Shown here: positions 10,458 to 28,897 of the stretch, one piece after another
How the letters are laid out: each line of letters begins with the position of its first letter
How positions within the stretch are numbered: position 1 is the first letter of the stretch
DNA from: Bacteroidota bacterium
GTDB lineage: Bacteria > Bacteroidota > Bacteroidia > NS11-12g > UBA955
Direction of reading: 5' to 3'
Assembly: GCA_016868785.1 (NCBI GenBank)
Contig: VGFS01000004.1
Coordinates: 4,050-68,049 of the forward strand
DNA length: 64,000 nt
Program-made: the position numbers and the translations under genes
The notes under the pieces: generated by a model
Told to the model about the DNA's origin: nothing
Databases searched by the model: none
What the model saw: only the letters and a program-made list of their open reading frames with translations

Positions 10458-10656
10458 CATGTTTTTTGCCTCTGCAAGGTATTTTGCCCACTGATTTTAT
10501 CAATTCTTGTGGAGTTTTTTGGGGATTTTGGGTGGCGCAGCCCGTGGTAAGTGTCAAATTAACGCTTGTTTGAAGATTTTCATAGGCACATCTCCATTTG
10601 TTGAAATGTTTTGGAGAATATTATCGGCGGTTTCCGTTGGTTGTCATTGAATCAAC

Positions 10657-10664
10657 TAATTTTG
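10657..10664 (+). promoter_or_regulatory. -7 element (TAATTTTG) for thyA
   Basis: Exact TAnnTTTG match 18 nt upstream of the ATG at 10683. Confidence 0.6.
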
Positions 10665-10682
10665 TCCAACCTCCCAACAACC

Positions 10683-11485
10683 ATGAGCGCTGCATTTGTT
10701 TACGAAGATTTTTTACGCCACGTTTTGGCGCACGGCGACCACAAATCGGATCGAACGGGCACCGGAACTATTAGTGTTTTTGGTGGACAGTTGCGCTTCG
10801 ATTTACAAAAGGGGTTTCCGTTGATAACAACCAAAAGGTGCATTTGAAGAGCATCGTACATGAACTGCTTTGGTTTTTGAAAGGGGAGACGAACATCGCT
10901 TATCTGAAAGAACACGGCGTGAGCATTTGGGATGAGTGGGCTGATGAAGCCGGTAATTTGGGTCCTGTATATGGCAAACAGTGGCGTTCTTGGGAAGCGA
11001 AGGATGGATCGGTGATCGACCAAATTTCGGAGGCTTTGCATTTGATCAAAAACAGTCCCGACAGTCGTAGAATTTTGGTTAATGCCTGGAACGTGGGCGA
11101 AATCAAGCAAATGGCCTTGATGCCCTGCCACACCATGTTTCAGTTTTACGTGGCCAACGGCAAGTTGAGTTGTCAGTTGTATCAGCGCAGTGCCGATTTG
11201 TTTTTGGGTGTGCCGTTTAATATTGCCAGTTACGCGTTGTTGACTTTGATGATGGCGCAAGTATGTGGATTGCAGCCCGGTGATTTTGTACACACCTTTG
11301 GCGATGCCCATATATACAGCAATCACATGGATCAGGTGAATTTGCAATTATCGCGCGAACCCCGACCTTATCCCACCATGAAGTTGAATCCTGGGGTGAC
11401 CAACTTGTTCGATTTTACTTTCGAAGATTTCACCTTGGAGGGCTATGATCCGCATCCGGGTATCAAGGCTCCCGTGGCTATTTAA
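10683..11485 (+). pseudogene. thyA: Thymidylate synthase with a frameshift at 10833-10836 (real lesion or sequence error)
   Basis: 5' frame ([15 protein letters not shown]) stops at 10847. The 3' frame from 10838 continues [33 protein letters not shown]. Adding one A to the A4 run restores TTKKVHLKS. Confidence 0.85.
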
Positions 11486-11556: not shown

Positions 11557-13962
11557 ATGATTGTTCGATTGTTAAGCAGACCTTTTTTCTTGGCGTTATC
11601 GCTTTGCGCGCTAAGTGCGGTTGAGGTTGAAGCACAAACGCCGTCACCCAAAGCCAGCATCAGTGGTTATTTGCGGGAAAAGAGCAGTGGCGAAATGTTG
11701 GGCAATGTGGTTGTTGCTGCGGCACCCAGTGCCAGCAGAACCCTCTCCAACAGTTACGGGTTTTACTCCATCACAATTCCAAAAGGACAAGCTCAGTGGG
11801 TGTATTTTCGGTTTCCCGGTTTTTACGCAGACAGCATTTACTGGACAGCCAAAGCGGATACCGCGGTAAACATCGAATTGTTGGCCATTCAAGTGGTGGA
11901 ATCGATGGGGGCGGTTGAAATCAAAGCAAAGAAAACCACCATTGCCGATCGGGCAGACATGAGCAGAATTGATATTCCTGTACAGCAAATCAAAGAGATT
12001 CCTGCTTTGTTGGGTGAAAAAGATGTGCTGAAAGTGATCCAGCTCATGCCAGGGGTGCAAAAGGGGGGTGAAGGACAGTCGGGCATCTACGTGCGTGGTG
12101 GGGGTCCAGACCAGAATTTGATTGTTTTAGACGAGGCCATTGTTTACAATGCGAGTCATTTGTTTGGGTTCTTTTCTCTTTTCAATGGCGATGCGTTGCG
12201 GAGTGTGGAGTTGGTGAAAGGGGGATTTCCTTCACGCTATGGCGGAAGGCTGTCGAGTGTGATTGACATGAACATGAAAGAGGGCAATTACAAAAAATTC
12301 GCGGGCGAAGTGGGTGTGGGTGTGATTAGTTCACGGGCAGTTTTTGAAGGTCCAATCGTAAAAGGGAAAAGTTCATTCATGATATCCGGGCGTCGAACGT
12401 ATTTGGATGCGTTGGTTCAGCCTTTGATCATGGCAAGTACCAATGGCGCCAATGCGGGTTATTACTTTTACGACATGAATGCCAAGGCCAACTACATCTT
12501 ATCGAATAAAGACAAATTGTATGTGTCGGGGTATTTCGGACGGGATAAATTTTACCTGAACGACAAACAAGCCAAATCGCAATTCAAAACCAATTTTGGA
12601 TGGGGGAATAAAACTCTCACCGGTCGGTGGAATCATCAGTACAATCCCAAGACTTTTGCCAACGCGGCGTTGATTTATAGTCATTACGACTTGAGCATCA
12701 ACATCCTTCAGAAAGAGAACGATAGCAGTCAGTTTGAGTTGGGTTATTCCAGCACCATCAACGATTATGGGTTGAAATATGACGTGGATTTCCGACCCAA
12801 CCCCAAGCACATGATCCGGGCGGGATTTTCAACGATCAATCACCAATTCAGTCCCAGCGCCATCGTGTTGAAGGTGGGTTCAAACTTCAATTTTAACCGC
12901 AAAATTAAAGTCATCAATACGTATGAAAGTGGGGTGTATGTGGAGGACCAATGGCGTGAAGGGGCGTGGAACTTCTATCCGGGTTTGCGTGTGAGTCATT
13001 ACGTGGTTGAAAACAAACAGGTAATCAACCCTGAGCCGCGTTTGAGTATGGCATACAACATCCGCAAAGATTTGGCGTTGAAGGCCAGTTATGCCTTGAT
13101 GAATCAATACATTCATTTGTTGAGCAGCACCGGTATTGGTTTGCCAACAGATTTGTGGGTTCCAGCGACGGCCAATGTGAAACCCATGCAAAGTCAGCAG
13201 TTGGCCACGGGCATCGCCAAGGATTTCAACAAAGGATTTTCGTTGAGTGTGGAAGGGTATTACAAAACCATGACCAATGTAATTACATACAAAGAGGGGG
13301 CTTCTTTTTTGTTGGGCGATGACTTCTTTAATCCCAATGTGTCTACGAATGATAAGGCATGGGAGAGTCAGGTTACAAGTGGTCTGGGCTGGAGTTATGG
13401 GGCGGAGGTGTTTTTGCAAAAACAGGTTGGAAAATTGAGCGGTTGGATTGGATATACATTGAGTTGGACCCAGTTGCAGTTTGATGAAGTGAATCAGGGC
13501 ATTAAATACTATGCAAAGTATGATCGTAGGCACGATGCTTCCATTGTGTGTATTTACCGATTGAGTAAATTGTTTACGGCATCGGCTACATGGGTATACG
13601 GAACTGGCAATGCCATTACCATGCCCCAAGGGTATTTGAGGGGGTCGGGTCATTACATGGGTTCTTTTCCAGAGGTGTGGGATGCGGCGAGTGGATTTTT
13701 CAACAACGAGTTGATTGATTACGGCAAGCGCAACAGTTTCAGGATGGAGGCCTACCATCGTTTGGATGTGGGACTGCAATTTAAAAAGGAAAAGAAACGG
13801 GGTATACAAACTTGGGAATTGAGTTTTTATAATGCCTACAATCGGTATAATCCCTTCTTTTATTATGGACGGTTGAACGATGCGGGTACAGTGCGGACCT
13901 TGAAAAAGGCTACGTTGTTCCCCATGATTCCGTCTTTGAGTTGGACCTATAAATTTCGTTAA
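11557..13962 (+). CDS. TonB-dependent receptor with an N-terminal carboxypeptidase-regulatory-like domain
   Basis: Plug motifs DVLKVIQLMPGV and YVRGGGPDQNL; beta-barrel ending in YKF. Confidence 0.93.
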   Translation: MIVRLLSRPFFLALSLCALSAVEVEAQTPSPKASISGYLREKSSGEMLGNVVVAAAPSASRTLSNSYGFYSITIPKGQAQWVYFRFPGFYADSIYWTAKADTAVNIELLAIQVVESMGAVEIKAKKTTIADRADMSRIDIPVQQIKEIPALLGEKDVLKVIQLMPGVQKGGEGQSGIYVRGGGPDQNLIVLDEAIVYNASHLFGFFSLFNGDALRSVELVKGGFPSRYGGRLSSVIDMNMKEGNYKKFAGEVGVGVISSRAVFEGPIVKGKSSFMISGRRTYLDALVQPLIMASTNGANAGYYFYDMNAKANYILSNKDKLYVSGYFGRDKFYLNDKQAKSQFKTNFGWGNKTLTGRWNHQYNPKTFANAALIYSHYDLSINILQKENDSSQFELGYSSTINDYGLKYDVDFRPNPKHMIRAGFSTINHQFSPSAIVLKVGSNFNFNRKIKVINTYESGVYVEDQWREGAWNFYPGLRVSHYVVENKQVINPEPRLSMAYNIRKDLALKASYALMNQYIHLLSSTGIGLPTDLWVPATANVKPMQSQQLATGIAKDFNKGFSLSVEGYYKTMTNVITYKEGASFLLGDDFFNPNVSTNDKAWESQVTSGLGWSYGAEVFLQKQVGKLSGWIGYTLSWTQLQFDEVNQGIKYYAKYDRRHDASIVCIYRLSKLFTASATWVYGTGNAITMPQGYLRGSGHYMGSFPEVWDAASGFFNNELIDYGKRNSFRMEAYHRLDVGLQFKKEKKRGIQTWELSFYNAYNRYNPFFYYGRLNDAGTVRTLKKATLFPMIPSLSWTYKFR

Positions 13963-17212: not shown

Positions 17213-18259
17213 TCATTCGTCGTCGGACTCCAACGCAGGGGCGGCTTGGGTGTATTTTCTAATTTTATTGAGGACGGTACTGAAGTCTTCGGGCAGTTCG
17301 CTGCTGAAGAACATGTTTTCGCCCGTTGTGGGATGAACAAAGCCCAATTCTTTGGCATGGAGGGCTTGCCTTGGCATGATATCGAAACAATTTTCGATGA
17401 AAGGTTTGAATTTTGGCAGGGCGGAACCTTTTCTTATTTCAGATCCACCGTACAGTTCATCGGAAAAAAGAGGGTGTTTGATGCTTGAAAAGTGTGCGCG
17501 AATTTGGTGGGTTCGTCCCGTTTCCAGCTCACACTGCACCAACGACGCGAAATAAAAATTATCCAGTGTGGTGTAGTGGCTAATGGCCAATTTTCCTTCT
17601 TCCTCGCTCTCGAAACATTTTGAACGTCTACGGTCGGCTGGATCTCGGTTGAGGTAGCTGCGTATGGTGCCATCTTTGGGTTTGGGTTCGCCCCAGACCA
17701 GGGCCCAATAGCGGCGGTGGATGCTGTGATCGAAGAATTGTTTTCCCAAATGTGATAGAGCGAAGTCGGTTTTGCCAATAACCAATAACCCTGAGGTGTC
17801 TTTGTCGATGCGATGCACCAACCCTGGTCTGTGGTATTGGTCTTTGGTTGGCAATTGTCCGAAGTGATAAACGAGTGCATTGACTAGGGTGCCGGAGTAG
17901 TTATTGTGTCCGGGATGCACCACCATGCCGGCTACTTTGTTTACCACGAGTAGGTCATCGTCTTCGTAGATGATGTTCAGGGGGATGTTTTCGGGGTAAA
18001 CTTCGGTATCTCTTGGGGCGGTGGGCAGCAGCACACGAACGTGATCGTTCGGTTTGATTTTGTAGTTGCTTTTTGTGGGTTTGTCGTTTACGACCACTGC
18101 GCCAGACTCGATGCCTGCTTGTATTTTAGACCGACTGGCATTGGCAATTTTTTGCATCAACCATTTGTCGACGCGCATTTGCTCTTGACCTGGATCAGCG
18201 GTAAACGCGTAGTGTTCGTACAATCCTTCGTCGAGGATTTCTTCTTCTGCTAAACTCAC
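17213..18259 (-). CDS. rluD: RluA-family 23S rRNA pseudouridine synthase, RluD-like
   Basis: S4 domain plus motifs VVHPGHNNYSGTLVN, HRIDKDTSG, LETGRTHQIR and RQALHA. Confidence 0.9.
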   Translation of the reverse strand: MSLAEEEILDEGLYEHYAFTADPGQEQMRVDKWLMQKIANASRSKIQAGIESGAVVVNDKPTKSNYKIKPNDHVRVLLPTAPRDTEVYPENIPLNIIYEDDDLLVVNKVAGMVVHPGHNNYSGTLVNALVYHFGQLPTKDQYHRPGLVHRIDKDTSGLLVIGKTDFALSHLGKQFFDHSIHRRYWALVWGEPKPKDGTIRSYLNRDPADRRRSKCFESEEEGKLAISHYTTLDNFYFASLVQCELETGRTHQIRAHFSSIKHPLFSDELYGGSEIRKGSALPKFKPFIENCFDIMPRQALHAKELGFVHPTTGENMFFSSELPEDFSTVLNKIRKYTQAAPALESDDE

Positions 18260-18267
18260 ACTGCAAA

Positions 18268-19167
18268 TTAAAGGCTAAACCGGAGTTGTCCGAGCATCAA
18301 TCCACCCCAACCTGCTTGATTTACCAAAACTGTTTGTCCTTTGGCGTTGGTCACCTCGGTGGCTTTTTCCAAAAAGGTATGGGTATGTCCGCCTACGATG
18401 GCAGTAATACCGTGGGTTTTTGCGGCAAGTTTGAGGTCGTCGATTTTATCAGTATCGTAAGAATACCCCAAATGAGAAACAACAAAAACGGCATCGCAGT
18501 GGGCTTGATTGCGGAGGTAATCGACGGTTTTTTGGAGGGAGGCAACGGGGTCTTGGTAGACCAATCCGGGAATCACGCGGTCGAGGATGAGGTTTTCGGG
18601 GCTAATACCTACGCCGGTAACTCCGATTGTTTTTCCGCCGATTTCCACAATTTTATAGGGTTTTACGAATTCTTTGAGGCGGGTTTGCGAGAGTTCGTAA
18701 TTGCAATTGATCATGGGGATGCCGGGATTTTTTTCCAGCATGTTGGCCAGGTGATCGATGCCATTGTCGAAATCGTGGTTGCCCATGGTGGTGGCGTGGT
18801 AGCCCATGTTTTGCATCCATTGGTATTCAAGTTGTCCTCCAAACAAGTTGAAATAGGGGGTTCCTTGAAACACATCACCACAATCGAGCAGCAGCACGTG
18901 GGGATGGTGGCTGCGGTGTTGTTGAATTAAGGTGGCCAGGTTGGCGATGCCGCCTTTTCCGGCCAGGGGGTGATTGGCCGGAAAAGGCTCAATGCGGGAG
19001 TGCAGATCATTGGTGTGCAACACGAGAAGTTCGAAGTGTTCCCGTGATTTTTGTTGCTGTGATTGCTGGGCTATGGATAATCCTCTGCCAATCAACTCTG
19101 TGGGCAAAGTGGCTCCGGCGGCCAAAACGGCCATCTGCTGCAAAAACCGTTTTCTATTGAGGCTCAT
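18268..19167 (-). CDS. 5'-nucleotidase metallophosphoesterase domain with a Tat-like signal
   Basis: Motifs LHTNDLHS, DCGDVFQG, MGNHDFD, SHLG and GGHTH; N-terminus SLNRKRFL. Confidence 0.92.
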   Translation of the reverse strand: MSLNRKRFLQQMAVLAAGATLPTELIGRGLSIAQQSQQQKSREHFELLVLHTNDLHSRIEPFPANHPLAGKGGIANLATLIQQHRSHHPHVLLLDCGDVFQGTPYFNLFGGQLEYQWMQNMGYHATTMGNHDFDNGIDHLANMLEKNPGIPMINCNYELSQTRLKEFVKPYKIVEIGGKTIGVTGVGISPENLILDRVIPGLVYQDPVASLQKTVDYLRNQAHCDAVFVVSHLGYSYDTDKIDDLKLAAKTHGITAIVGGHTHTFLEKATEVTNAKGQTVLVNQAGWGGLMLGQLRFSL

Positions 19168-20032
19168 GGTAGATGCGGATTTGTTTGCGTGGATCAATGA
19201 ATTTATTGGATTCGTATTCGGCCTTTAGTTGATCGGCGATCACATTTCTGAGGTTGATGCCCGCGTAATGGATTTTTTTGGCGTGCTTGAGCATGGTAAA
19301 TCCATCACCGCCCACCACCATGTAGGAGTTAACTGCGACCAGGTAATCGCGACGGGTATCGAGGGGTTGGGTATAAATGGGATTCAACAAGTCGTTCACG
19401 GTGAGGATGGGTCGGGCATTGATTTTAACCGAGGCATATCGATTGTCTTTTCGGGTTGTCCCATTGTTGTAAGTCAGCAGAAATCCTGCGGCGGGGGTCC
19501 CTTGAAGCTGTGCAATGTATTGAAACAGACTATCTACATAAACACCGGGCAATTGCAACAGAACCAGTTCATTGTCGAACGGCATCACTTCAAACAACTG
19601 CTTCAGGGTAACAGGGCCCGGATACAAACCGGTGCGAAATCCGCCGTTGTTGCTGATGGCGAAATGACAGGGAATCCCGAATTGCTGTTGGCTGATTGTG
19701 TTGGCGCTGAGCAGCATGTAGTCGGCGGCCAATCGACCCAAATTGCCCACGAAAAAGGCGTTGGAAAATGGAGAGTCGATGTTGGCGATGTAGGCCGACA
19801 TTTCATCTTCCATTTGGGTTTTGTAGGGGTGGATGAGGGCGATACTCAAGGAGTCATCGGGCACCGAATCGCAGACAGCAATGTTGGCCACTGCCTGGAA
19901 GTTGGGAGAAGATTGGGCGGTCTTGTGCGTTGAAAAGCAGGCGCTGAAAATCAACGAGATACCGCAAATCCAAGCCGTGATATTACGATGAATTGGTAAA
20001 GAGGTACTGGATGGTTGGGGGCTTCTCAACAT
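19154..20032 (-). CDS. 5'-nucleotidase C-terminal (substrate-binding) domain, probable lipoprotein
   Basis: Motifs NNGGFR, FEVMPFDNEL and YMVVGGDG; FSAC lipobox. Confidence 0.88.
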   Translation of the reverse strand: MLRSPQPSSTSLPIHRNITAWICGISLIFSACFSTHKTAQSSPNFQAVANIAVCDSVPDDSLSIALIHPYKTQMEDEMSAYIANIDSPFSNAFFVGNLGRLAADYMLLSANTISQQQFGIPCHFAISNNGGFRTGLYPGPVTLKQLFEVMPFDNELVLLQLPGVYVDSLFQYIAQLQGTPAAGFLLTYNNGTTRKDNRYASVKINARPILTVNDLLNPIYTQPLDTRRDYLVAVNSYMVVGGDGFTMLKHAKKIHYAGINLRNVIADQLKAEYESNKFIDPRKQIRIYHEPQ

Positions 20033-20125
20033 ATCGACTACAAAATTGCAGATTCACTGGCGAATTTGTCGTTAATTTATTGCTAAAAACAACTGTTTTT
20101 GGCTCTTTTTTGTGATTTTTGCAGT

Positions 20126-21073
20126 ATGAAAAAAACGATTGGCATTTTTTGTATCGCTCTAATGAGTGCATTCCAAGTAAAAGCGCAGTGTAACGAACTA
20201 TTCATTTCAGAATATGTAGAGGGTTCGCGCAACAACAAAGCCTTGGAAATTTATAACCCTAGCAGCAGCGCCGTCGATCTGAGTAAATACCGAGTAACAC
20301 GCTGGCAGAATGGCTCCGCGGCTTGGACAGCTCAAATGTCTGATGTCCTCTCGGGAACATTGCAACCAAAGGATGTGGCTGTGTTGGTGATAGATCGCCG
20401 AGACACCACCAAAAAAGGCCAAGATACGCCTGTAGTTCTGACGTTGAGATTGAAGGCGGATTTGTTTTTAAGCAAAGATTACAACACGAGTTATAGCATG
20501 AGTTTCAATGGTGACGATGCGATGTCATTGGATAAATTGAATGATGCCACTGGAAAATGGGTGCCCGTTGATATTTTTGGAAAAATCGGCGAACGTCCAA
20601 GTCCGGCTTGGAGCGATAAACCTCCCTACACTGGCACAGGTACATGGTATACTTTAGACAAAACGTTGATTCGCAAAGACAGTGTGATGACGGGTGTTGC
20701 CAAGAACCCCTTGGAATTTAATCCCAAATTGGAGTGGGTTTTGAATCCCCGCGACATGTTCGATTCTTTGGGTTTTCACACTTGTTTGTGTGCACAGAAT
20801 CCATCGGCCGCGGTGAAAGCTCCGGTGATTTCTCAGGTGTCAGTATACCCCAACCCCGCCGTAACATCGGCCACGGTTTTCTTGCCGTTTGAACTGTCAA
20901 AGTTGGTTTGCTTGAATGCGGCTGGGCAGTTGATCGCTGTTGATTACGACCATGTGGGCATGGATGACATGTCGCAGTATTCCTTGCATGTATCTCATTT
21001 GTCAGCAGGTGTTTATACCCTGGAATTTGTGGGTGTTAATGGTGCCAAGGCTTCGGCCAAATTGATCAAATAA
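20126..21073 (+). CDS. Lamin-tail-domain protein with a T9SS type A sorting domain
   Basis: LFISEYVEGSRNNKALEIYNP and FNGDDA (LTD); C-terminal VYPNPA...LSAGVY. Confidence 0.88.
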   Translation: MKKTIGIFCIALMSAFQVKAQCNELFISEYVEGSRNNKALEIYNPSSSAVDLSKYRVTRWQNGSAAWTAQMSDVLSGTLQPKDVAVLVIDRRDTTKKGQDTPVVLTLRLKADLFLSKDYNTSYSMSFNGDDAMSLDKLNDATGKWVPVDIFGKIGERPSPAWSDKPPYTGTGTWYTLDKTLIRKDSVMTGVAKNPLEFNPKLEWVLNPRDMFDSLGFHTCLCAQNPSAAVKAPVISQVSVYPNPAVTSATVFLPFELSKLVCLNAAGQLIAVDYDHVGMDDMSQYSLHVSHLSAGVYTLEFVGVNGAKASAKLIK

Positions 21074-23781
21074 TGCGTAAGTTTATCCTGTTGGGATGGG
21101 GTTTGATGTTGTCAATGACGGCATTGGCCCAAGTGACGATAAAGGGTAGGGTGGTTGATGCGATCAGTGGTGAATTGCTCGAAGGCGCGAAGGTAACAAC
21201 CCGAAATCAGTCGGCCCTTTCAGGAAAAGATGGCAATTACACCTTGGTTTTACCCATGGGTGAATACATGTTGATGGCTCAGTTGGAGGGTTTCGATGGC
21301 GACACGGTTTTTGTTCAGGCCGATCGCAATTTGATAACGGATGTTAATTTTCGGCTCGACAACCAAAGTGCAGCGATGCAGGCGGTTCAAATTACGGCGA
21401 GTGTTGCCAAGGACCGCAAAACACCGGTGGCGTATTCCAATTTTACAGGAAAAGACATTTCGGAGCGATTGGGCAGTGCGGATTTGCCATTGCTTTTGAA
21501 CCAAACGCCTGGGGTATATGCAACTTCACAGGGTGGAGGGGCTGGCGATGCCCGCATCAGCATTCGCGGATTCAGTCAGCGCAACATTGCGGTAATGGTG
21601 GACGGAATTCCCGTGAACGACATGGAGAATGGTCAGGTTTATTGGAGCAATTGGTTTGGATTGGGGAATGTAACGGCCCTTACCCAAGTACAGCGGGGAT
21701 TGGGTTCTTCACGCATCGCCAACCCGGCGGTGGGCGGCACCATGAATATTATCACCAAGGGCATTTCTCAGCAGTCTCGTTTGGAGGCCAACGTGGAGAT
21801 GGGTGATAGCAAGTATGAGCAATTTTCCATGAATTATTGCAGTGGTCGATTGAAGGGTGGTTGGGGCGTTCTGTTGAGCGTAACCAAACGACAGAGTGCG
21901 GGATATGTGGACTATCTTTATGATGACATGTACTCGTATTTTGGGAAGGTGGAGAAGCAATGGAAGACCAAATCGCATGGTTCGCATACCTTGAGTTTTG
22001 TGGGAGTTGGAGCTCCACAGAGTCATGGTCAGCGGAGTTTTCGGGCCCGTCTTTCGATGTATGATCGGGCAATGGCTCAGGAGTTGGGCATAGATACGGT
22101 GCTTCCGCGGATGGCTTATAACCAGGGGAACCGCTACAATCAGCACTGGGGTTATGTTAACGAGGCCAAGGTAAGTGCGGATAAAACGGACACTGTTTGG
22201 GCGCGTAGATATGCTTTGAATGAGCGGGAGAATATGTTCCACAAACCCCAGTTTTACGTAAAGCATGACTGGGCGGTTTCTAAGAAAACGTTGGTAACCA
22301 CAACGGCCTACGCCTCATACGGTCGGGGTGGCGGTGTGAGTTCTAACAGCACATTAAAAATTCCTCAATTGCCTCAGAATTACGGTCAGTACGATTTTCA
22401 GGGCATTTATTTTCTGAATTCATCGGGCAGTGATTTCACCTCTCCAGTTGATCCCAAGTATTCGTTGACAGAAAATAAATCTGCTGGGATTTTGCAGCGC
22501 GCGGTGAACAATCACAATTGGTATGGTTTGTTGAACACCACCCAACACAAACTCAATAACCGTTGGTCGCTCACCGGCGGCATCGATTTGCGCACTTATC
22601 GTGGCAGGCATTACCGCGAGGGCTACAACCTGTTGGGCGGCGATTATTTCATTCCCAGTCAGTCTGAAAAGAATCCGGCTTTCAATGCCAAGCACATGTA
22701 TCGCGCGGGCGATATTTTTGGGTACAACAACGATGGATTGGTGCGTTGGGCAGGGATGTTTGGGGAATTGGAATACAGTAAAAATAGGACTACAGCGTTT
22801 GTGAATGCCAGTGTTTCGAATACTTGGTTGCAGCGAATCGATTATTTCAAGTTGAATTTGGACAGTCAATACGGACAAAAAACGGCTTGGATTCAGCGCA
22901 AGGGTTTCACGTTTAAGACGGGGTTAAATCACAACATCAGTCGCAAAATGAACGTGTTTGGCAACATGGGTTATTTGAACCGTCCTACCCGATTTAGCAA
23001 TGTATTTGACAACAGGAACGTACAGGTTCGCGACATTCGCAACGAGCGCGTGATGGCGGTGGAGGGCGGATCGGGTTATAAATCGAAGCGTTTGGCTTTG
23101 AATTTCAATGCTTATTACACGTTGTGGATGAACAAGCCAGTAGATTTTTTGTCTACGTTCACCGACTTAGACGGTAACAACTACAGTTTCAACATCAATG
23201 GTTTGGGGGCTAGGCACATGGGTGCAGAATTGCAGGCCTCGTTCCGTGCGGGCGATGGCATAACCATCGAGGGCAGTTTGAGCATGGGCGATTGGATTTG
23301 GAATTCGGGTTCGGAGGTGATTGTTCGCAACGATTTGGGCGATAGCATCACGAAAGTTGATTTTGATGCCAAGGGCGTGCACGTGGGCGATGCGGCTCAG
23401 CAGCAGGTGGCGGTGTTGATGCGCTGGGAACCTACCTATTTGAAAGGGGCTTATTTCACTGCGCAGTACATTCATTTTGCCAAGCACTATGCGGATTTTG
23501 ATCCTACGGCATTGGTTGGTAAATACAAAGGACAGGAATCGTTCATGTTGCCGAGTTACTGGTACATGAATTTGACAGGGGGCTACAAATGGACAATGAA
23601 AGGCGGGATGAAGGTGCAGATTTATGGCATGGTGAACAATGTAACAAACAACGTTTACATCACTGACGGACAGCATCGAAATGTAGACGGCAATCCCATC
23701 AATACCTTTAATCCCAAGAATTTGGAAGTCTTTATTTCTCCTGGGCTTAGATTCACTACGGGGATCAGAATTACCTATTAA
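21073..23781 (+). CDS. TonB-dependent receptor
   Basis: Plug DARISIRGFSQRNIAVMVDGIPVND; 902-aa barrel ending GIRITY; ATG overlaps the upstream TAA. Confidence 0.92.
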   Translation: MRKFILLGWGLMLSMTALAQVTIKGRVVDAISGELLEGAKVTTRNQSALSGKDGNYTLVLPMGEYMLMAQLEGFDGDTVFVQADRNLITDVNFRLDNQSAAMQAVQITASVAKDRKTPVAYSNFTGKDISERLGSADLPLLLNQTPGVYATSQGGGAGDARISIRGFSQRNIAVMVDGIPVNDMENGQVYWSNWFGLGNVTALTQVQRGLGSSRIANPAVGGTMNIITKGISQQSRLEANVEMGDSKYEQFSMNYCSGRLKGGWGVLLSVTKRQSAGYVDYLYDDMYSYFGKVEKQWKTKSHGSHTLSFVGVGAPQSHGQRSFRARLSMYDRAMAQELGIDTVLPRMAYNQGNRYNQHWGYVNEAKVSADKTDTVWARRYALNERENMFHKPQFYVKHDWAVSKKTLVTTTAYASYGRGGGVSSNSTLKIPQLPQNYGQYDFQGIYFLNSSGSDFTSPVDPKYSLTENKSAGILQRAVNNHNWYGLLNTTQHKLNNRWSLTGGIDLRTYRGRHYREGYNLLGGDYFIPSQSEKNPAFNAKHMYRAGDIFGYNNDGLVRWAGMFGELEYSKNRTTAFVNASVSNTWLQRIDYFKLNLDSQYGQKTAWIQRKGFTFKTGLNHNISRKMNVFGNMGYLNRPTRFSNVFDNRNVQVRDIRNERVMAVEGGSGYKSKRLALNFNAYYTLWMNKPVDFLSTFTDLDGNNYSFNINGLGARHMGAELQASFRAGDGITIEGSLSMGDWIWNSGSEVIVRNDLGDSITKVDFDAKGVHVGDAAQQQVAVLMRWEPTYLKGAYFTAQYIHFAKHYADFDPTALVGKYKGQESFMLPSYWYMNLTGGYKWTMKGGMKVQIYGMVNNVTNNVYITDGQHRNVDGNPINTFNPKNLEVFISPGLRFTTGIRITY

Positions 23782-23796
23782 CATCGAACAGAAAAT

Positions 23797-26016
23797 ATGA
23801 ACATGAAAAAAATATTCGGATTTGCCTTGGCCCTTTTGGGTAGCGCTAGCACGGCATTTTCACAGGCCACTTTGCCCGCATTTTGGAATTGTAACGACCC
23901 TGCAGCGGCGCCAACAGGATTTACCTTGAATCAGGGCACCTCGGGTACGTTTGTGTATACTTCATCCACGTTGGTGAAGAGTACGCCTGCGGCGATCCGA
24001 TTGGACGTAACGGGCGAATGGGTTAAGATCAATTGGACAGGAGCAGCCGATACTTTGTGGTTTTACGCATCGGGTACTGCCGCTTCTGGAGTGACGGCTT
24101 GGAAGGGAACGTTTGATGTGGAGGCGAGTGCGGATGGCAGTACATGGACATCGGTAAAGAAATTAGTGGATACCGACATGCCCATGGGCACCAAGCAGTT
24201 GTTTGCCCAGGTTGGCAGTACCGCTCGCTTCGCTCGCTTAATTTTCACATCGAAAACATCGGGGTACAACTTGGCCATCGACGACATCGAAGTACGTCCG
24301 GGCAAAGGCGGTGCAAAACCCGAAATCAAAGTAGATTACGCAGGAAAAACCCTCATCAATGGCAACGAAATCCGTGTGGGTAATGCCAATAGCTTTGATC
24401 TTACCATCAAGAATAATAGCACACTGGGCGACCTTAACATCACAGGTTTGCAAAAATCGGGCACCCATGCGGCTGACTTTACCACTGCGCAATCGTTCCC
24501 GGTAACCGTAAAAGCCGGTGAATCCACCACGCTTAAGGTTGATGTGAATCAGAGTGCAACGGCGGGTTCTTTGAAAGCCACTTTGGGTATTTTGAGTAAC
24601 GACAGTTTGCAGTTGCCCTTCAACGTGAAAGTGTATGCCATCCGTGGTCGTTTGGCCACCGAGCCATCATCGGCACCCGGGGCCCTGAATTTGGTGAGCA
24701 ATCTGGCCTGGAAATCGGTGTTGGGGATTACGTCCTCTTCCGCCGATGGCTACTTGGTGATGTTGAGCACATCCCCCATCACAGCCACCCCCGTGGATGG
24801 CGTGGCTTACCAGCGTGGTGAGTACCTCAATGGCGCCCGCATCATGCACGCTGCAGCCCTTGCGGATGTTAATTTCGACAACATTTGGGGTGCTACAAAA
24901 TACCATGTGAAGGCGTTTGCATTCAATGGTTATGATAGCTATATCAATTACTTCAGCACCTCGGCGAGTTCCTTGGAGTATACCACCCCCGGACTTAATC
25001 CAGGAAGTTTCTATGGTTCGTTGACTGCGGCAGATACCCTGTTGGTGTCGAAATTGCGTGGCATCGTACGTCCACATTTCCAAGTGTATTACAGCAACTT
25101 TGGTGCTACCATGGCCTCAAACTTTGATGCCCGCGATACCACTGATGGTAAAAAAGTCATCAACTGTTTCTATACTGGCTATCCTTATGTATTTACTCCG
25201 CCGTTTTTCTTTGACGTGGCCGACCAGAATTATTTGAGTCGCGAACACTCTTATCCCTATTCTTGGATGGGTGAGGCGAGTCAGGACAGCGCCAACTACA
25301 GTGATTTGTATTTGTTGTATTTGGTGCACCAAAACAAAGTCAACGCTGTGCGCAGCAACTATCCCATGAACAATTTGAAGACCGTAACCATGAACTTTTA
25401 TGGCGGTAAATTTGGGACGGATTCAGCGGGTGGATTTGCTTACGAACCCCGCGATTTTGCCAAAGGTGCATTGAGTCGCTCAAACTTCTATATCTGTGCA
25501 ACGTACAACCGTGCTGGTGCTCCTTTTACCATTCCAACGGCCAATGAGTTTTTGGGGATGAACCAAGACCAGAATGTATTGAAGCGTTGGAGTAAGCAAT
25601 TCCCGCCCAACGGATGGGAGATTGCCCGACATGAATACGTGGCTTCTGTTCAGAAGAACCGAAATCCGTTTGTGGACCATCCGGAGTGGGCTTGTTACAT
25701 TGATTTCTCTACCATGAAGTATGTATCGGGTGGAACTGCTTGCGGCGGTCCAACCATTTCAACCAAGCCCCATGCGGTGGTGAATGCGTATATTTACCCC
25801 AATCCCAGTTCGGATGTGATGCACATTGATTTGTCGGGTTTCAACGGCAGCGAAGTAAAAGTGACTGTGGTCGACTTTTACGAGCGTACGGTTTTTGAAG
25901 GCAAGCGTCAAGGTGGTAGCATGACCTTGGATGTTAAGGGCTGGTCGGCCGGACAGTATTTGGTCTTGATTCAAGGCGCCACGAAGCAGGCGGTGACCAA
26001 TGTGATGGTGAATTGA
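23797..26016 (+). CDS. T9SS-secreted multidomain endonuclease I (EndA/Vvn-like)
   Basis: Motifs SREHSYPYSW, NAVRSNYP, EPRDFAKGALSR and RNPFVDHPEW; Ig-like N-terminal domains; CTD IYPNPSSD. Confidence 0.88.
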   Translation: MNMKKIFGFALALLGSASTAFSQATLPAFWNCNDPAAAPTGFTLNQGTSGTFVYTSSTLVKSTPAAIRLDVTGEWVKINWTGAADTLWFYASGTAASGVTAWKGTFDVEASADGSTWTSVKKLVDTDMPMGTKQLFAQVGSTARFARLIFTSKTSGYNLAIDDIEVRPGKGGAKPEIKVDYAGKTLINGNEIRVGNANSFDLTIKNNSTLGDLNITGLQKSGTHAADFTTAQSFPVTVKAGESTTLKVDVNQSATAGSLKATLGILSNDSLQLPFNVKVYAIRGRLATEPSSAPGALNLVSNLAWKSVLGITSSSADGYLVMLSTSPITATPVDGVAYQRGEYLNGARIMHAAALADVNFDNIWGATKYHVKAFAFNGYDSYINYFSTSASSLEYTTPGLNPGSFYGSLTAADTLLVSKLRGIVRPHFQVYYSNFGATMASNFDARDTTDGKKVINCFYTGYPYVFTPPFFFDVADQNYLSREHSYPYSWMGEASQDSANYSDLYLLYLVHQNKVNAVRSNYPMNNLKTVTMNFYGGKFGTDSAGGFAYEPRDFAKGALSRSNFYICATYNRAGAPFTIPTANEFLGMNQDQNVLKRWSKQFPPNGWEIARHEYVASVQKNRNPFVDHPEWACYIDFSTMKYVSGGTACGGPTISTKPHAVVNAYIYPNPSSDVMHIDLSGFNGSEVKVTVVDFYERTVFEGKRQGGSMTLDVKGWSAGQYLVLIQGATKQAVTNVMVN

Positions 26017-26873
26017 TGAATTTTCAGCGCGCCGAGATATTGGATTTGATTGATCGCTGTTTGGCCGAGGATATCGGCAGCGGCGATCACAGCAGTTTGG
26101 CATCGATTCCGGAAGGAACGATGGGCGAATCGCGCTTGTTGCTCAAGCAAGAGGGAGTGGTGGCAGGGTTGGCATTGGGCGAAGTGATTTTGCGCAGGCT
26201 AGATCCTGAAATAGAATGGGTTTCGATGGCCAGCGATGGCGATTATTTGCCATCTGGAACGCAGCTTGCTGAGGTGAAAGGGCGGGTACATGCCTTGTTG
26301 GCTGGGGAGCGGTTGATGTTGAACTTCATGCAGCGGTTGTCGGGTGTGGCGACCCAAGCGTATCAGGCAGTGAGATTGGTTGAGGGCACGGGCGCAAGGA
26401 TATTAGATACGCGCAAAACCACGCCAGGTCTTCGAACTTTGGAAAAGTGGGCGGTTACCATGGGCGGGGCACAAAATCATCGCATCGGGTTGTACGACAT
26501 GGTGATGTTGAAAGACAACCACAATGATTCGGCTGGGGGTATTACCGCGGCGGTGAATCGCACCAAGGCGTATTTGCAGGAGAAAGGATTGACGTTGGGC
26601 ATAGAGGTAGAAACGCGCAACATGAACGAAGTGAGAGAAGTATTGTCGTTGGGCGGAATCCAGCGGGTGATGCTCGACAATTTCACCCCAGAGGCCTGTG
26701 TTGAGGCGGTGAAAGAAATCGCGGGGCGTTGCGAAACCGAAGCTTCGGGAGGCATTCATTTGGGCAATTTGCGGTCGTATGCTGAGGCGGGGGTAGATTT
26801 CATCTCTTTGGGCTCACTCACGCACAGTGTAATGTCGTTGGACATTAGTTTTAAAACGAAAGTAGTATCATGA
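26016..26873 (+). CDS. nadC: Nicotinate-nucleotide pyrophosphorylase (carboxylating)
   Basis: Motifs EDIGSGD, LDTRKTTPGLR, HRIGLYD, VMLDNF and EASGG. Confidence 0.97.
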   Translation: MNFQRAEILDLIDRCLAEDIGSGDHSSLASIPEGTMGESRLLLKQEGVVAGLALGEVILRRLDPEIEWVSMASDGDYLPSGTQLAEVKGRVHALLAGERLMLNFMQRLSGVATQAYQAVRLVEGTGARILDTRKTTPGLRTLEKWAVTMGGAQNHRIGLYDMVMLKDNHNDSAGGITAAVNRTKAYLQEKGLTLGIEVETRNMNEVREVLSLGGIQRVMLDNFTPEACVEAVKEIAGRCETEASGGIHLGNLRSYAEAGVDFISLGSLTHSVMSLDISFKTKVVS

Positions 26874-27490
26874 AAAAAAGTATAAACATCGTATTTACCT
26901 CGGGATTGATGGTGATGGGCTTGTTGATTGGTGGCGCCCAAAGCGGTTGCAACGCCAAGGGATCTGGCGCTGAATCATCGGACAGTGCTGCGGTAGAAAT
27001 GGCCTTGAAGGCGCAGGCTTTGGAGGAACATGCGGCATCAGACAGTACAACAAAGGTGGCAGGCGATACGGCATCGGGAGAGAAAAAAGCGGTTTCTGGC
27101 AAATTGCAATGGTACGAATATGCCGATGGGTATAACAAGGCCAAGGCGGAAAACAAAATTTTGCTCGTGGATGCTTACACCGATTGGTGTGGTTGGTGCA
27201 AAGTGATGGACAGAGAGACCTATACCAATGCGGCGGTTATTGCTGCATTGAACCAAGATTTTGTGTGTGTAAAATTTAACCCGGAAGTGGAGATGACGCA
27301 CAGTTTTGGAAAGTATAATTTGAAGAGCAACGAGTTGTTGTATTGGTTGTCGAACGGACAACCCGGGGGATATCCCACCAGTTATTTTGTATTTCATCCA
27401 GCCAAAAACGATGAGCGGGCGTCTCAGGCGGGCTATTTGCCCCCCGATCAATTTTTGAAGTTGTTGGCGGAGGTGAAGAAGCGACATTAA
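26870..27490 (+). CDS. Thioredoxin-fold lipoprotein (DUF255-like)
   Basis: Motif DAYTDWCGWCKVMD and cis-Pro GYPT; QSGC lipobox. Confidence 0.87.
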   Translation: MKKSINIVFTSGLMVMGLLIGGAQSGCNAKGSGAESSDSAAVEMALKAQALEEHAASDSTTKVAGDTASGEKKAVSGKLQWYEYADGYNKAKAENKILLVDAYTDWCGWCKVMDRETYTNAAVIAALNQDFVCVKFNPEVEMTHSFGKYNLKSNELLYWLSNGQPGGYPTSYFVFHPAKNDERASQAGYLPPDQFLKLLAEVKKRH

Positions 27491-27496
27491 TCCTTT

Positions 27497-28897
27497 ATGG
27501 CTAGAAAAGTAAAAGAGTTTCGATTGTTCGAGAAACTGACCATTGAAGCGGCTGCGGCCGAGGGTCATTGTATTGCCCGTCACGACGGACAGGTAATTTT
27601 TGTGAAATATGCTGCACCGGGCGATGTGGTGGATGTGCAGATCGTGAAGAAGAAAAAGAACTTCATGGAAGGCAAGATCATCCGGTTTCATGAAAAATCG
27701 ATGTTGCGTGTGAATCCTACGTGTCAGTATTTTGGCACATGTGGTGGCTGTAAGTGGCAGCATTTGGGATATGCGGATCAGTTGGCATTCAAGCAGCAGC
27801 AGGTGGTGGATGCGATGGAGCGGATTGGCAAGGTGGAAGGGTTTGAAGTGATGCCTATTTTGGGTAGTGGACAGGTTTATGGGTACCGCAACAAGCTGGA
27901 ATTGACGTTTGCGGACCGCAGTTGGGTGACGGTGATGCCTGCCGAAGGTGAGCCTTTTCCAACGGCGTTGGGGTTTCATATGCCGGGAAAATTCGACAAG
28001 GTGTTGGATATTGAGGCCTGTCATTTGATGCCCGATTACGTGAATTTGATTCAGCGCGGGGTGAAGGGCTATTGCGAGGCGAAGGGGATTGAATTTGTCA
28101 ATGTGATTAAGCAGGAAGGACAGATGCGCAACATCATGTTCCGGTGCAATCGCGATGGTGAGTGGATGGTTTTGGTATCGTTTCACGAGGAGCGTGAAGA
28201 GAATGCCGGGCTGATGCAGTACATCGCTGATACATTTGATAAAATTGTGTGTTTGGTATATGTGATCAATCCCAAGCGGAACGATACGTTGCAGGATTTG
28301 GAGGTACAGTTGTTTGCGGGCAAGCCCTATTTAACGGAGCGATTGGGCAACATGACGTATAAAGTGAGGCCGCAGAGCTTCTTTCAGACAAATACGTTGC
28401 AGGCCGAAAATTTGTATAAAATCACCAAGGATTTTGCTGGGTTAACGGGCGGTGAGTTGGTGTATGATTTGTATACGGGAACGGGCAGTATTGCTTTGTT
28501 TGTGGCGGATCAGGCGAGGGAAGTTGTGGGGATAGAATACGTGGAGGAGGCCATCATGGATGCCAAAGAGAACATGTTGTTAAACGGGGTGGAGAACTGC
28601 AAATTTTACGCAGGCGATATGAAGGATATTCTCACGGCGGAGTTCATTGCGGAGCACGGCAGACCCGATGTGGTAATCACAGATCCACCGCGCGATGGCA
28701 TGCATCCGAGTGTGGTTGAGCGGTTGTTGGAGGCCAGACCCAAGCGCATTGTTTACGTGAGTTGCAATCCAGCGACTCAGGCGAGGGATGCCGCGTTGTT
28801 GGATGTGGCGTATCGCTTGGTGAAGGTTCAGCCCGTGGACATGTTCCCACACACCCATCACGTGGAGAATGTGGGTTTATGGGAGTTGCGGGGTTAA
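27497..28897 (+). CDS. rlmD: 23S rRNA m5U1939 methyltransferase
   Basis: TRAM domain, Fe-S motif CQYFGTCGGC, and motifs DLYTGTG, DPPRDG, YVSCNPATQARD and DMFPHT. Confidence 0.96.
   Translation: MARKVKEFRLFEKLTIEAAAAEGHCIARHDGQVIFVKYAAPGDVVDVQIVKKKKNFMEGKIIRFHEKSMLRVNPTCQYFGTCGGCKWQHLGYADQLAFKQQQVVDAMERIGKVEGFEVMPILGSGQVYGYRNKLELTFADRSWVTVMPAEGEPFPTALGFHMPGKFDKVLDIEACHLMPDYVNLIQRGVKGYCEAKGIEFVNVIKQEGQMRNIMFRCNRDGEWMVLVSFHEEREENAGLMQYIADTFDKIVCLVYVINPKRNDTLQDLEVQLFAGKPYLTERLGNMTYKVRPQSFFQTNTLQAENLYKITKDFAGLTGGELVYDLYTGTGSIALFVADQAREVVGIEYVEEAIMDAKENMLLNGVENCKFYAGDMKDILTAEFIAEHGRPDVVITDPPRDGMHPSVVERLLEARPKRIVYVSCNPATQARDAALLDVAYRLVKVQPVDMFPHTHHVENVGLWELRG

Follow-up and report, generated by a model that had tools for sequence, protein, structure and literature searches.

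How might a free-living freshwater bacterium reach the nutrients held in extracellular nucleic acid? In lakes, oceans and sediments, DNA and RNA outside cells constitute major reserves of both phosphorus and nitrogen. To our knowledge, the means by which abundant planktonic Bacteroidota gain access to them are poorly defined, and the only characterized DNA-utilization loci of the phylum that we know of are those of gut Bacteroidales, in which the transporter is partnered by a DUF5689 lipoprotein. The question is raised here by a locus at positions 18268–26016 of a 64,000-nucleotide stretch of DNA (the window; contig VGFS01000004.1 of assembly GCA_016868785.1, positions 4,050–68,049) from a freshwater Bacteroidota bacterium known as a metagenome-assembled genome (MAG) of 79 contigs and about 2 Mb. 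On the plus strand the locus encodes a lamin-tail domain (LTD) protein, a TonB-dependent receptor and an endonuclease I; on the minus strand it encodes a 5'-nucleotidase distributed over two proteins. We conclude that it is probably a system for scavenging nucleic acid with a dedicated TonB-dependent transporter at its center, most likely a relative of the ddb DNA-utilization loci that depends on the T9SS (type IX secretion system), is partnered by an LTD protein and is extended by a two-subunit periplasmic 5'-nucleotidase.

The receptor keeps an LTD gene and a nuclease gene across Bacteroidota

Loci with a related receptor were collected from one genome per species, giving 80 loci, and the counts reported here use those with enough DNA. 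In 71 of 71 readable loci the gene directly upstream of that for the receptor encodes an LTD protein, and the same-strand gene of roughly 700–770 codons directly downstream encodes a T9SS-sorted nuclease in 61 of 64. The carriers belong to Flavobacteriales, Cryomorphaceae, Fluviicola, Saprospiraceae, Bacteroidales, Marinilabiliales and Lentimicrobiaceae. At 59%, 47% and 41% receptor identity the LTD–receptor–nuclease order is kept and the flanking genes differ; adjacency that persists from 37% to 99% receptor identity among such varied flanks is more than chance would give. An earlier note on this DNA had proposed a locus resembling a polysaccharide utilization locus (PUL), lacking SusD, that cuts, imports and dephosphorylates nucleic acid, and had expected its genes to occur together in relatives. 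This strict synteny bears out that expectation, and together with the exchange of nuclease modules, the likeness of the receptor to a DdbC-like one and the two arrangements of the nucleotidase pair described below it lends the proposal strong comparative support.

The position of the nuclease is constant, and its catalytic fold varies. An endonuclease I module is present in 44 loci, placed C-terminally, as in the window, or N-terminally; in 17 loci it is replaced by two PLDc_2 domains, usually after fn3, whose fold is that of another type of nuclease or phosphodiesterase. Because the fold is exchanged at a fixed position and the product is always T9SS-sorted, secreted nuclease activity appears to be what selection keeps. 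DUF5689, the hallmark of DdbD, is detectable at the N-terminus of several of the PLDc_2-type nucleases. In Fluviicola-type loci (L062, L068, L076 and L097, the last being G199:C3) it is fused to endonuclease I inside an LTD-type cassette, and the order on a single strand is LTD, receptor, DUF5689–endonuclease-I fusion, 5_nucleotid_C lipoprotein and metallophosphatase. One Bacteroidales MAG carries three consecutive endonuclease-I genes 3' of the receptor (L055, 9677–16612).

The distribution of the cassette is patchy. Of 101 genomes from the same order, about 28 contain an orthologue of at least 55% identity, and in a 301-genome sample of the phylum four other genomes fell in the score range of the confirmed LTD-linked loci. 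A number of records that carry the cassette (L019, L021, L029, L037, L070 and others), apparently mislabelled bins, bear titles naming Rhizobium sp., Chitinophaga pinensis, Sphingomonadales or Thalassomonas.

The receptor is probably a distant relative of DNA-utilization receptors

The receptor gene (21073–23781, plus strand) specifies 902 residues with an N-terminal carboxypeptidase-regulatory-like domain (CarbopepD_reg_2) and a Plug domain (Pfam). It has numerous homologues, and its orthologues span 37–99% identity. The protein gave no match to the SusC/RagA-type NCBIfam model, and no SusD-like gene is present among the neighbors of the locus.

The ddbABCDEF locus of Bacteroides thetaiotaomicron encodes three nucleases, the transporter DdbC and DdbD, a DUF5689 protein predicted to bind DNA, and is needed for DNA depletion (PMC12478041). 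Such loci are also found in other gut Bacteroidales (Sharan et al., PNAS 2025, PMC12478041), and the Bt and Pv types of DdbC are only about 25% identical to each other (PMC12478041). A relative from the same family as our genome has a locus (L012) of classical ddb-like composition, with an EEP nuclease, a receptor and DUF5689. The window receptor aligns with this DdbC-like, DUF5689-adjacent receptor at 23% identity over about 650 residues, barrel included (pairwise E 4e-33), and in the reverse search the only match of the DdbC-like receptor in the present genome is the window receptor. Adjacent DUF5689 partner genes were found in 0 of 28 loci with lower-scoring receptor relatives that are not linked to LTD, so the evolutionary link to DdbC depends on the one proxy locus, L012. 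In one of the 28, L103, a DUF5689-repeat open reading frame (ORF) lies about 2.3 kb away.

The distant relatives of the receptor lack an LTD neighbor, and several are encoded directly upstream of PF01663 phosphodiesterases or near endonuclease-I genes; the wider receptor clade may be devoted to phosphodiester compounds. Among individual loci, the L102 and L110 receptors directly precede genes for type I phosphodiesterase/nucleotide pyrophosphatase (PF01663), and close to those of L100, L115 and L117 there are endonuclease-I genes, either cadherin-type or short.

Homologues of the receptor are annotated as 'iron complex outermembrane receptor protein' or 'cobalamin receptor', and the window protein itself has a weak NCBIfam BtuB match (47 bits, vs a cut-off of 600). 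These names could be taken at face value, in which case the receptor would import an unrelated ligand such as an iron complex or cobalamin and its neighbors would be conserved by position only. The names are automatic, however, and the scores behind them lie far under the family cut-offs. The neighborhood holds no iron or cobalamin genes, and an Rfam search of 17500–27500 returned no family or riboswitch match. Nor would an unrelated ligand explain why the LTD and nuclease genes remain adjacent down to 37% receptor identity while flanks change and nuclease modules are swapped. We regard such a ligand as very improbable.

The nuclease retains the catalytic residues of endonuclease I

The gene at 23797–26016 (plus strand) encodes a choice-of-anchor-D protein of 739 residues with a signal peptide, an Endonuclease_1 domain (E 7.5e-25; 88.5 bits vs the Pfam cut-off of 25) and a T9SS sorting domain (E 1.3e-9). 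Three β-sandwich domains occupy residues ∼67–396, followed by the endonuclease I domain (∼400–640) and the sorting domain (666–739). Alignment to Vvn and VsEndA places Glu483-His484 at Vvn Glu79-His80 and Asn516 at the Mg-binding Asn127 of Vvn, and all three residues are invariant in nine diverse homologues with identity down to 24%. The earlier note had named REH and RSN as the catalytic motifs. The first indeed contains Glu483-His484; the second (residues 519–521) sits three residues past Asn516 and, although beside this metal ligand, is invariant in the close subfamily only. The ββα-metal residues of endonuclease I are thus present with the catalytic motifs intact, and activity is predicted. 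The shared catalytic residues ally the protein with the periplasmic endonucleases EndA and Vvn, from which it differs in being three times longer and T9SS-sorted. Long EndA-like exoproteins of Flavobacterium are induced on phosphate depletion (bioRxiv 10.1101/719427).

A fold search with the structural model of the nuclease recovered fn3/Ig repeat matches only. Homology of its N-terminus to DUF5689 was considered and rejected, as hhalign aligned just the signal peptide.

The LTD gene is paired with the receptor gene

The LTD gene (20126–21073, plus strand) encodes a protein of 315 residues with a signal peptide, an LTD module (Pfam, E 2.5e-12) and a T9SS type-A sorting domain; its N-terminus is similar to the one found in ExeM, an extracellular nuclease (NCBIfam, E 1.9e-17). 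The module comprises residues 21–225, with conserved Cys22, Cys220 and Cys222, and the sorting domain spans residues 240–315. The AlphaFold model, a confident one (predicted local distance difference test score, pLDDT, of 86), consists of a single enlarged β-sandwich followed by the sorting domain. When this model was used in a fold search, the matches were generic immunoglobulin-like ones only, including the Ig domain of lamin A/C at a template modeling (TM) score of 0.5.

The stop codon of the LTD gene overlaps the receptor start codon in the sequence TAATG at 21071–21075. Taken with the invariant pairing of the two genes, this translational coupling suits an accessory subunit of the receptor better than a DNA binder, and we infer physical contact between the two proteins. 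Speculatively, such a subunit might act as a cap, as a dock for the nuclease, or in hand-over of ligand through a metal bridge. One locus, L046, was examined as a possible LTD–receptor fusion and was set aside; its single long ORF is a read-through located toward the end of the LTD sorting domain, and the receptor retains a separate signal peptide, so it does not constitute a Rosetta-stone fusion.

Both the LTD protein and the nuclease score above the T9SS cut-offs (PF18962/TIGR04183), the former only just (27.7 bits vs 27 for PF18962; 23.1 vs 23 for TIGR04183), and the genome encodes SprA, the T9SS translocon, on contig C10. On the strength of the sorting domains and of the genomic SprA, the two proteins are predicted to be T9SS type-A cargo, with secretion and anchoring as the expected outcome.

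A probable 5'-nucleotidase made of two exported proteins

The minus-strand unit begins with a 5_nucleotid_C lipoprotein gene (19154–20032), followed by a metallophosphatase gene. The ORF of the latter extends over 18268–19197, and the gene probably occupies 18268–19167, with the ATG at 19167 as the likely true start; the two genes overlap by 14 bp. The metallophosphatase (Pfam Metallophos, E 2e-17, with UshA/NadN/CpdB-type NCBIfam matches) keeps the DxH, GD, GNHD and GHTH motifs. Its twin-arginine translocation (Tat) motif, NRKRFLQ, is an RK variant, and the orthologues have the canonical RRxFL(K/R). The protein would thus be a Tat-exported equivalent of the N-terminal catalytic half of an UshA-type 5'-nucleotidase. 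The companion protein matches the C-terminal domain (Pfam 5_nucleotid_C, E 4e-21) and keeps the NGGFR, PFDN and GGDGF motifs. Its lipobox, LIFSAC, is conserved among orthologues, and the lack of acidic residues after the lipid-modified Cys suggests that it faces the periplasm.

UshA is a single polypeptide, whereas its domains are found here intact on two proteins and in reversed order, the C-terminal domain being encoded first. The earlier note had described a 5'-nucleotidase split into two exported proteins. The two separate exports stand; the word 'split' wrongly implies a lesion. Of 300 sampled Bacteroidota genomes, 60 contain free-standing 5_nucleotid_C genes (246–320 aa/codons), which indicates that the two-gene nucleotidase is old and common in the phylum and is no lesion. 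Despite its non-canonical architecture, the pair probably works like UshA.

In the clade with 47–99% receptor identity, nearly every locus with enough upstream DNA has the pair in divergent orientation upstream of the cassette, and in the Fluviicola-type loci it follows the nuclease gene in tandem. That the pair has been recruited beside the cassette in two different arrangements speaks for functional coupling. In most carriers, however, the pair lies elsewhere or is not found nearby, so that the nucleotidase, which the earlier note had made part of the locus, is a cassette member in some lineages only.

Junctions, intergenic elements and neighboring genes

All five genes lie where the earlier note placed them and have the domains it named; its TAATG overlap and divergent spacer of 93 bp were likewise confirmed. 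The spacer (20033–20125) holds the promoter region or regions of both units. A TTTG-type element lies in it immediately 5' of the LTD start codon; this element, 'TTTTTGCA / AATTTGCA', is located 5–15 nt 5' of the LTD ATG and was found again in relatives. A hairpin with a 9-bp stem followed by a T-run is also present just 5' of the LTD start (20082–20103; z = −2.5 vs shuffles). The hairpin is shared with a 99%-identical relative and shows no recognizable conservation past near-identical relatives. A promoter and terminator scan revealed no terminator between the LTD, receptor and nuclease genes, and the nuclease gene begins fifteen bases past the receptor stop codon. In the σ70 scan, promoter-like sites were rarer than in shuffled sequence, and such a scan is uninformative for Bacteroidota promoters.

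Downstream lies nadC (quinolinate phosphoribosyltransferase; 26013–26873), whose probable ATG at 26016 overlaps the nuclease stop codon as TGATG. It may be co-transcribed with the cassette, or the overlap may reflect only the tight packing of a 2-Mb genome. A DsbH-like thioredoxin gene and then rlmD follow nadC with almost no spacers. In most relatives of the 47–99% clade nadC also follows the cassette, sometimes with a DUF4783 gene in between.

Genomic context of nucleoside salvage

The genome encodes thymidine kinase (tdk, C43:5538–6050) and a NupC-type transporter (C3:24994–25608) for nucleoside salvage. The thyA gene of the window (10611–11485) is read as two frames (10611–10847 and 10838–11485), which may reflect an assembly error in the 79-contig MAG or a real lesion. 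The earlier note had suggested that the locus could supply thymidine if the lesion is real; with tdk and NupC encoded, such a supply is possible. The 5'-nucleotidase pair, together with NupC and tdk, makes it plausible that the organism can take extracellular DNA all the way to salvaged nucleosides. Contig C43 (5538–11203) brings together, within about 6 kb, the thymidine kinase gene, the ComEC gene and that of a second metallophosphatase paralogue, which shares 27% identity with the window protein. Directly after thyA in the window, an 801-aa ORF (11557–13962) has, judged by its translation, the look of another TonB-dependent receptor.

Relation to transformation receptors

DdbC and DdbD are homologous to RA0C_RS04915 and RA0C_RS04920 (PMC12478041), both of which are indispensable to natural transformation in Riemerella anatipestifer (Huang et al. 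2021, PMC8459023). The Riemerella system resembles the present one in its TonB-type protein with a carboxypeptidase-regulatory domain, its adjacent surface partner and its neighboring nuclease, and through DdbC its receptor would belong to the same broad family as that of the window. It differs in that the partner is a DUF5689/DUF5017 protein encoded downstream and in that the phenotype is transformation, not catabolism. A module of that type, made of a receptor and a DUF5689/DUF5017 partner, is not what the window contains, and a search for DUF5689 (PF18942) gave no match anywhere in this genome.

This kinship raises the possibility that the cassette serves as the outer-membrane DNA-entry step of natural transformation, feeding ComEA, ComEC and DprA, a role that could coexist with nutrition. 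The same role has been proposed for RA0C_RS04915 and its DUF5689 partner, the window receptor is distantly related to the DdbC-like receptor, and the 2-Mb genome retains ComEC, DprA and a ComEA-like HHH_3 protein. These three are, however, so nearly universal in control genomes (10–11 of 14) that they do not discriminate between the readings. The nuclease of the cassette would destroy transforming DNA, and the company kept by the receptors is catabolic, with 5'-nucleotidases here and phosphodiesterases at distant receptor relatives. The DUF5689 partner that is needed in Riemerella is missing as well. We judge a role in transformation to be unlikely, though the least so of the alternatives considered here.

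Discussion

The features described above fit a model in which nucleic acid is scavenged in successive steps. The T9SS would export the endonuclease-I protein and the small LTD protein, probably tethering both to the cell surface, where the nuclease would cleave extracellular DNA or RNA to oligonucleotides or nucleotides. The receptor would then take the cleavage products through the outer membrane on TonB energy, with the LTD protein as its obligatory partner, a SusD/DdbD-like accessory (cap, dock or ligand hand-over) and not a simple DNA binder. In the periplasm, the Tat-exported metallophosphatase and the lipoprotein, serving as substrate-binding subunit, would together strip phosphate as a two-subunit 5'-nucleotidase. 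Phosphate and nucleosides would enter the cell, the NupC-type transporter and thymidine kinase accounting for nucleoside uptake and salvage. What the substrate is, that the proteins are tethered at the surface, how large the imported product is and how the cassette is regulated we infer; the gene content, the catalytic motifs, the export signals, the conserved gene order with its exchanged modules and the DdbC-like homology can be read from the sequences themselves.

Several observations weigh against this model or parts of it. The relationship to DdbC was examined through a single proxy, the DUF5689-adjacent receptor of L012, and not with the B. thetaiotaomicron protein. The structural model of the nuclease has a pLDDT of 67, falling below 50 in the catalytic core, so that the geometry of the active site is unreadable. 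The substrates of 5'-nucleotidases are mononucleotides, and the locus lacks a gene for a periplasmic exonuclease. Since the genome is tightly packed and nadC overlaps the nuclease gene, spacing alone is no proof of an operon. Comparison of the LTD protein with DUF5689 by hhalign aligned the signal peptides only, and in most lineages the mature LTD module has an acidic composition (pI about 4.05–4.65, net charge −10 to −29), although it is near neutral in the freshwater clade of this genome. Lastly, B. thetaiotaomicron grows poorly on DNA as sole source of carbon, nitrogen or phosphorus (PMC12478041), so that to call DNA a food may overstate the benefit.

The properties of the LTD module bear most directly on the earlier suggestion that this protein binds DNA. 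A simple DNA-binding role fits a mostly acidic module poorly, and the protein shares no homology with DUF5689, the predicted DNA binder; the suggestion is therefore doubtful. The missing profile similarity further implies that the LTD protein is an analogous, and not a homologous, partner of the receptor.

An acidic module would also suit a surface protein with a role other than DNA binding, and secreted nucleases often serve in biofilms, in escape from DNA traps or in attack. The nuclease and LTD protein could act on the surroundings (DNA of biofilms or aggregates, DNA traps, competitors or phage DNA), the receptor importing a by-product or a signal. In B. thetaiotaomicron, the bile-dependent formation of biofilms has been tied to a ddbF homologue (cited in PMC12478041). 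Action on the surroundings would leave unexplained why the nuclease is coupled to a dedicated energy-dependent importer, both in the conserved downstream position and by the translational overlap within the cassette, and why periplasmic nucleotide-hydrolyzing enzymes are linked to it. The host, moreover, has a streamlined 2-Mb genome of planktonic type. We consider this explanation distinctly unlikely, though more likely than import of an unrelated ligand.

Scavenging by a ddb-like system remains the preferred interpretation, and comparison with known systems shows where this one stands. Like the ddb loci, it is PUL-like without SusD and combines secreted nuclease activity with a dedicated TonB-dependent transporter and an adjacent non-SusD surface partner; to this can be added the distant homology of the receptor to a DdbC-like one and the presence of DUF5689 inside the nuclease of many sister cassettes. 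The differences are equally clear. The partner is an LTD protein encoded upstream of the receptor instead of a DUF5689 protein; the surface proteins carry T9SS sorting domains where those of ddb have lipoprotein signals; a single nuclease, of the endonuclease-I type, is accompanied by an attached periplasmic 5'-nucleotidase pair; and the host is a free-living freshwater organism with a small genome. The system also parallels the SusC/SusD PULs in its surface hydrolase, TonB-dependent import of oligomers, periplasmic finishing enzymes and N-terminal carboxypeptidase-regulatory-like extension of the receptor, but it lacks SusD and a match to the SusC/RagA model, and its enzymes are nucleases and nucleotidases, not glycoside hydrolases. 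In Shewanella, ExeM/ExeS and UshA offer a further parallel, as the LTD protein resembles the ExeM N-terminus and an UshA-type nucleotidase finishes the pathway. In ExeM, LTD is fused to the nuclease, whereas here it is a separate protein paired with a receptor; the equivalent of UshA, in turn, is two polypeptides in reversed order.

Full-text searches of the literature revealed no published description of a cassette made of an LTD protein, a TonB-dependent receptor and a T9SS-sorted nuclease. Neither LTD nor the T9SS is mentioned in PMC12478041 or PMC8459023, and endonuclease I is unmentioned in PMC12478041.

Tentatively, the free-standing LTD protein may represent a new class of surface subunit for TonB-dependent transporters, delivered and anchored through the T9SS and not through lipidation, which would be the first defined job of bacterial lamin-tail domains; it would form with the receptor the main nucleic-acid gate of many environmental Bacteroidota, for nutrition and, where ComEC and DprA are active, for transformation. 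If the scavenging function proposed here is correct, the concept of a DNA-utilization locus would reach free-living lineages, and the automatic 'iron' and 'cobalamin' receptor names of these transporters would be corrected. The cassette would provide a marker for nucleic-acid foragers in metagenomes. It would also suggest a function for stand-alone bacterial lamin-tail proteins.

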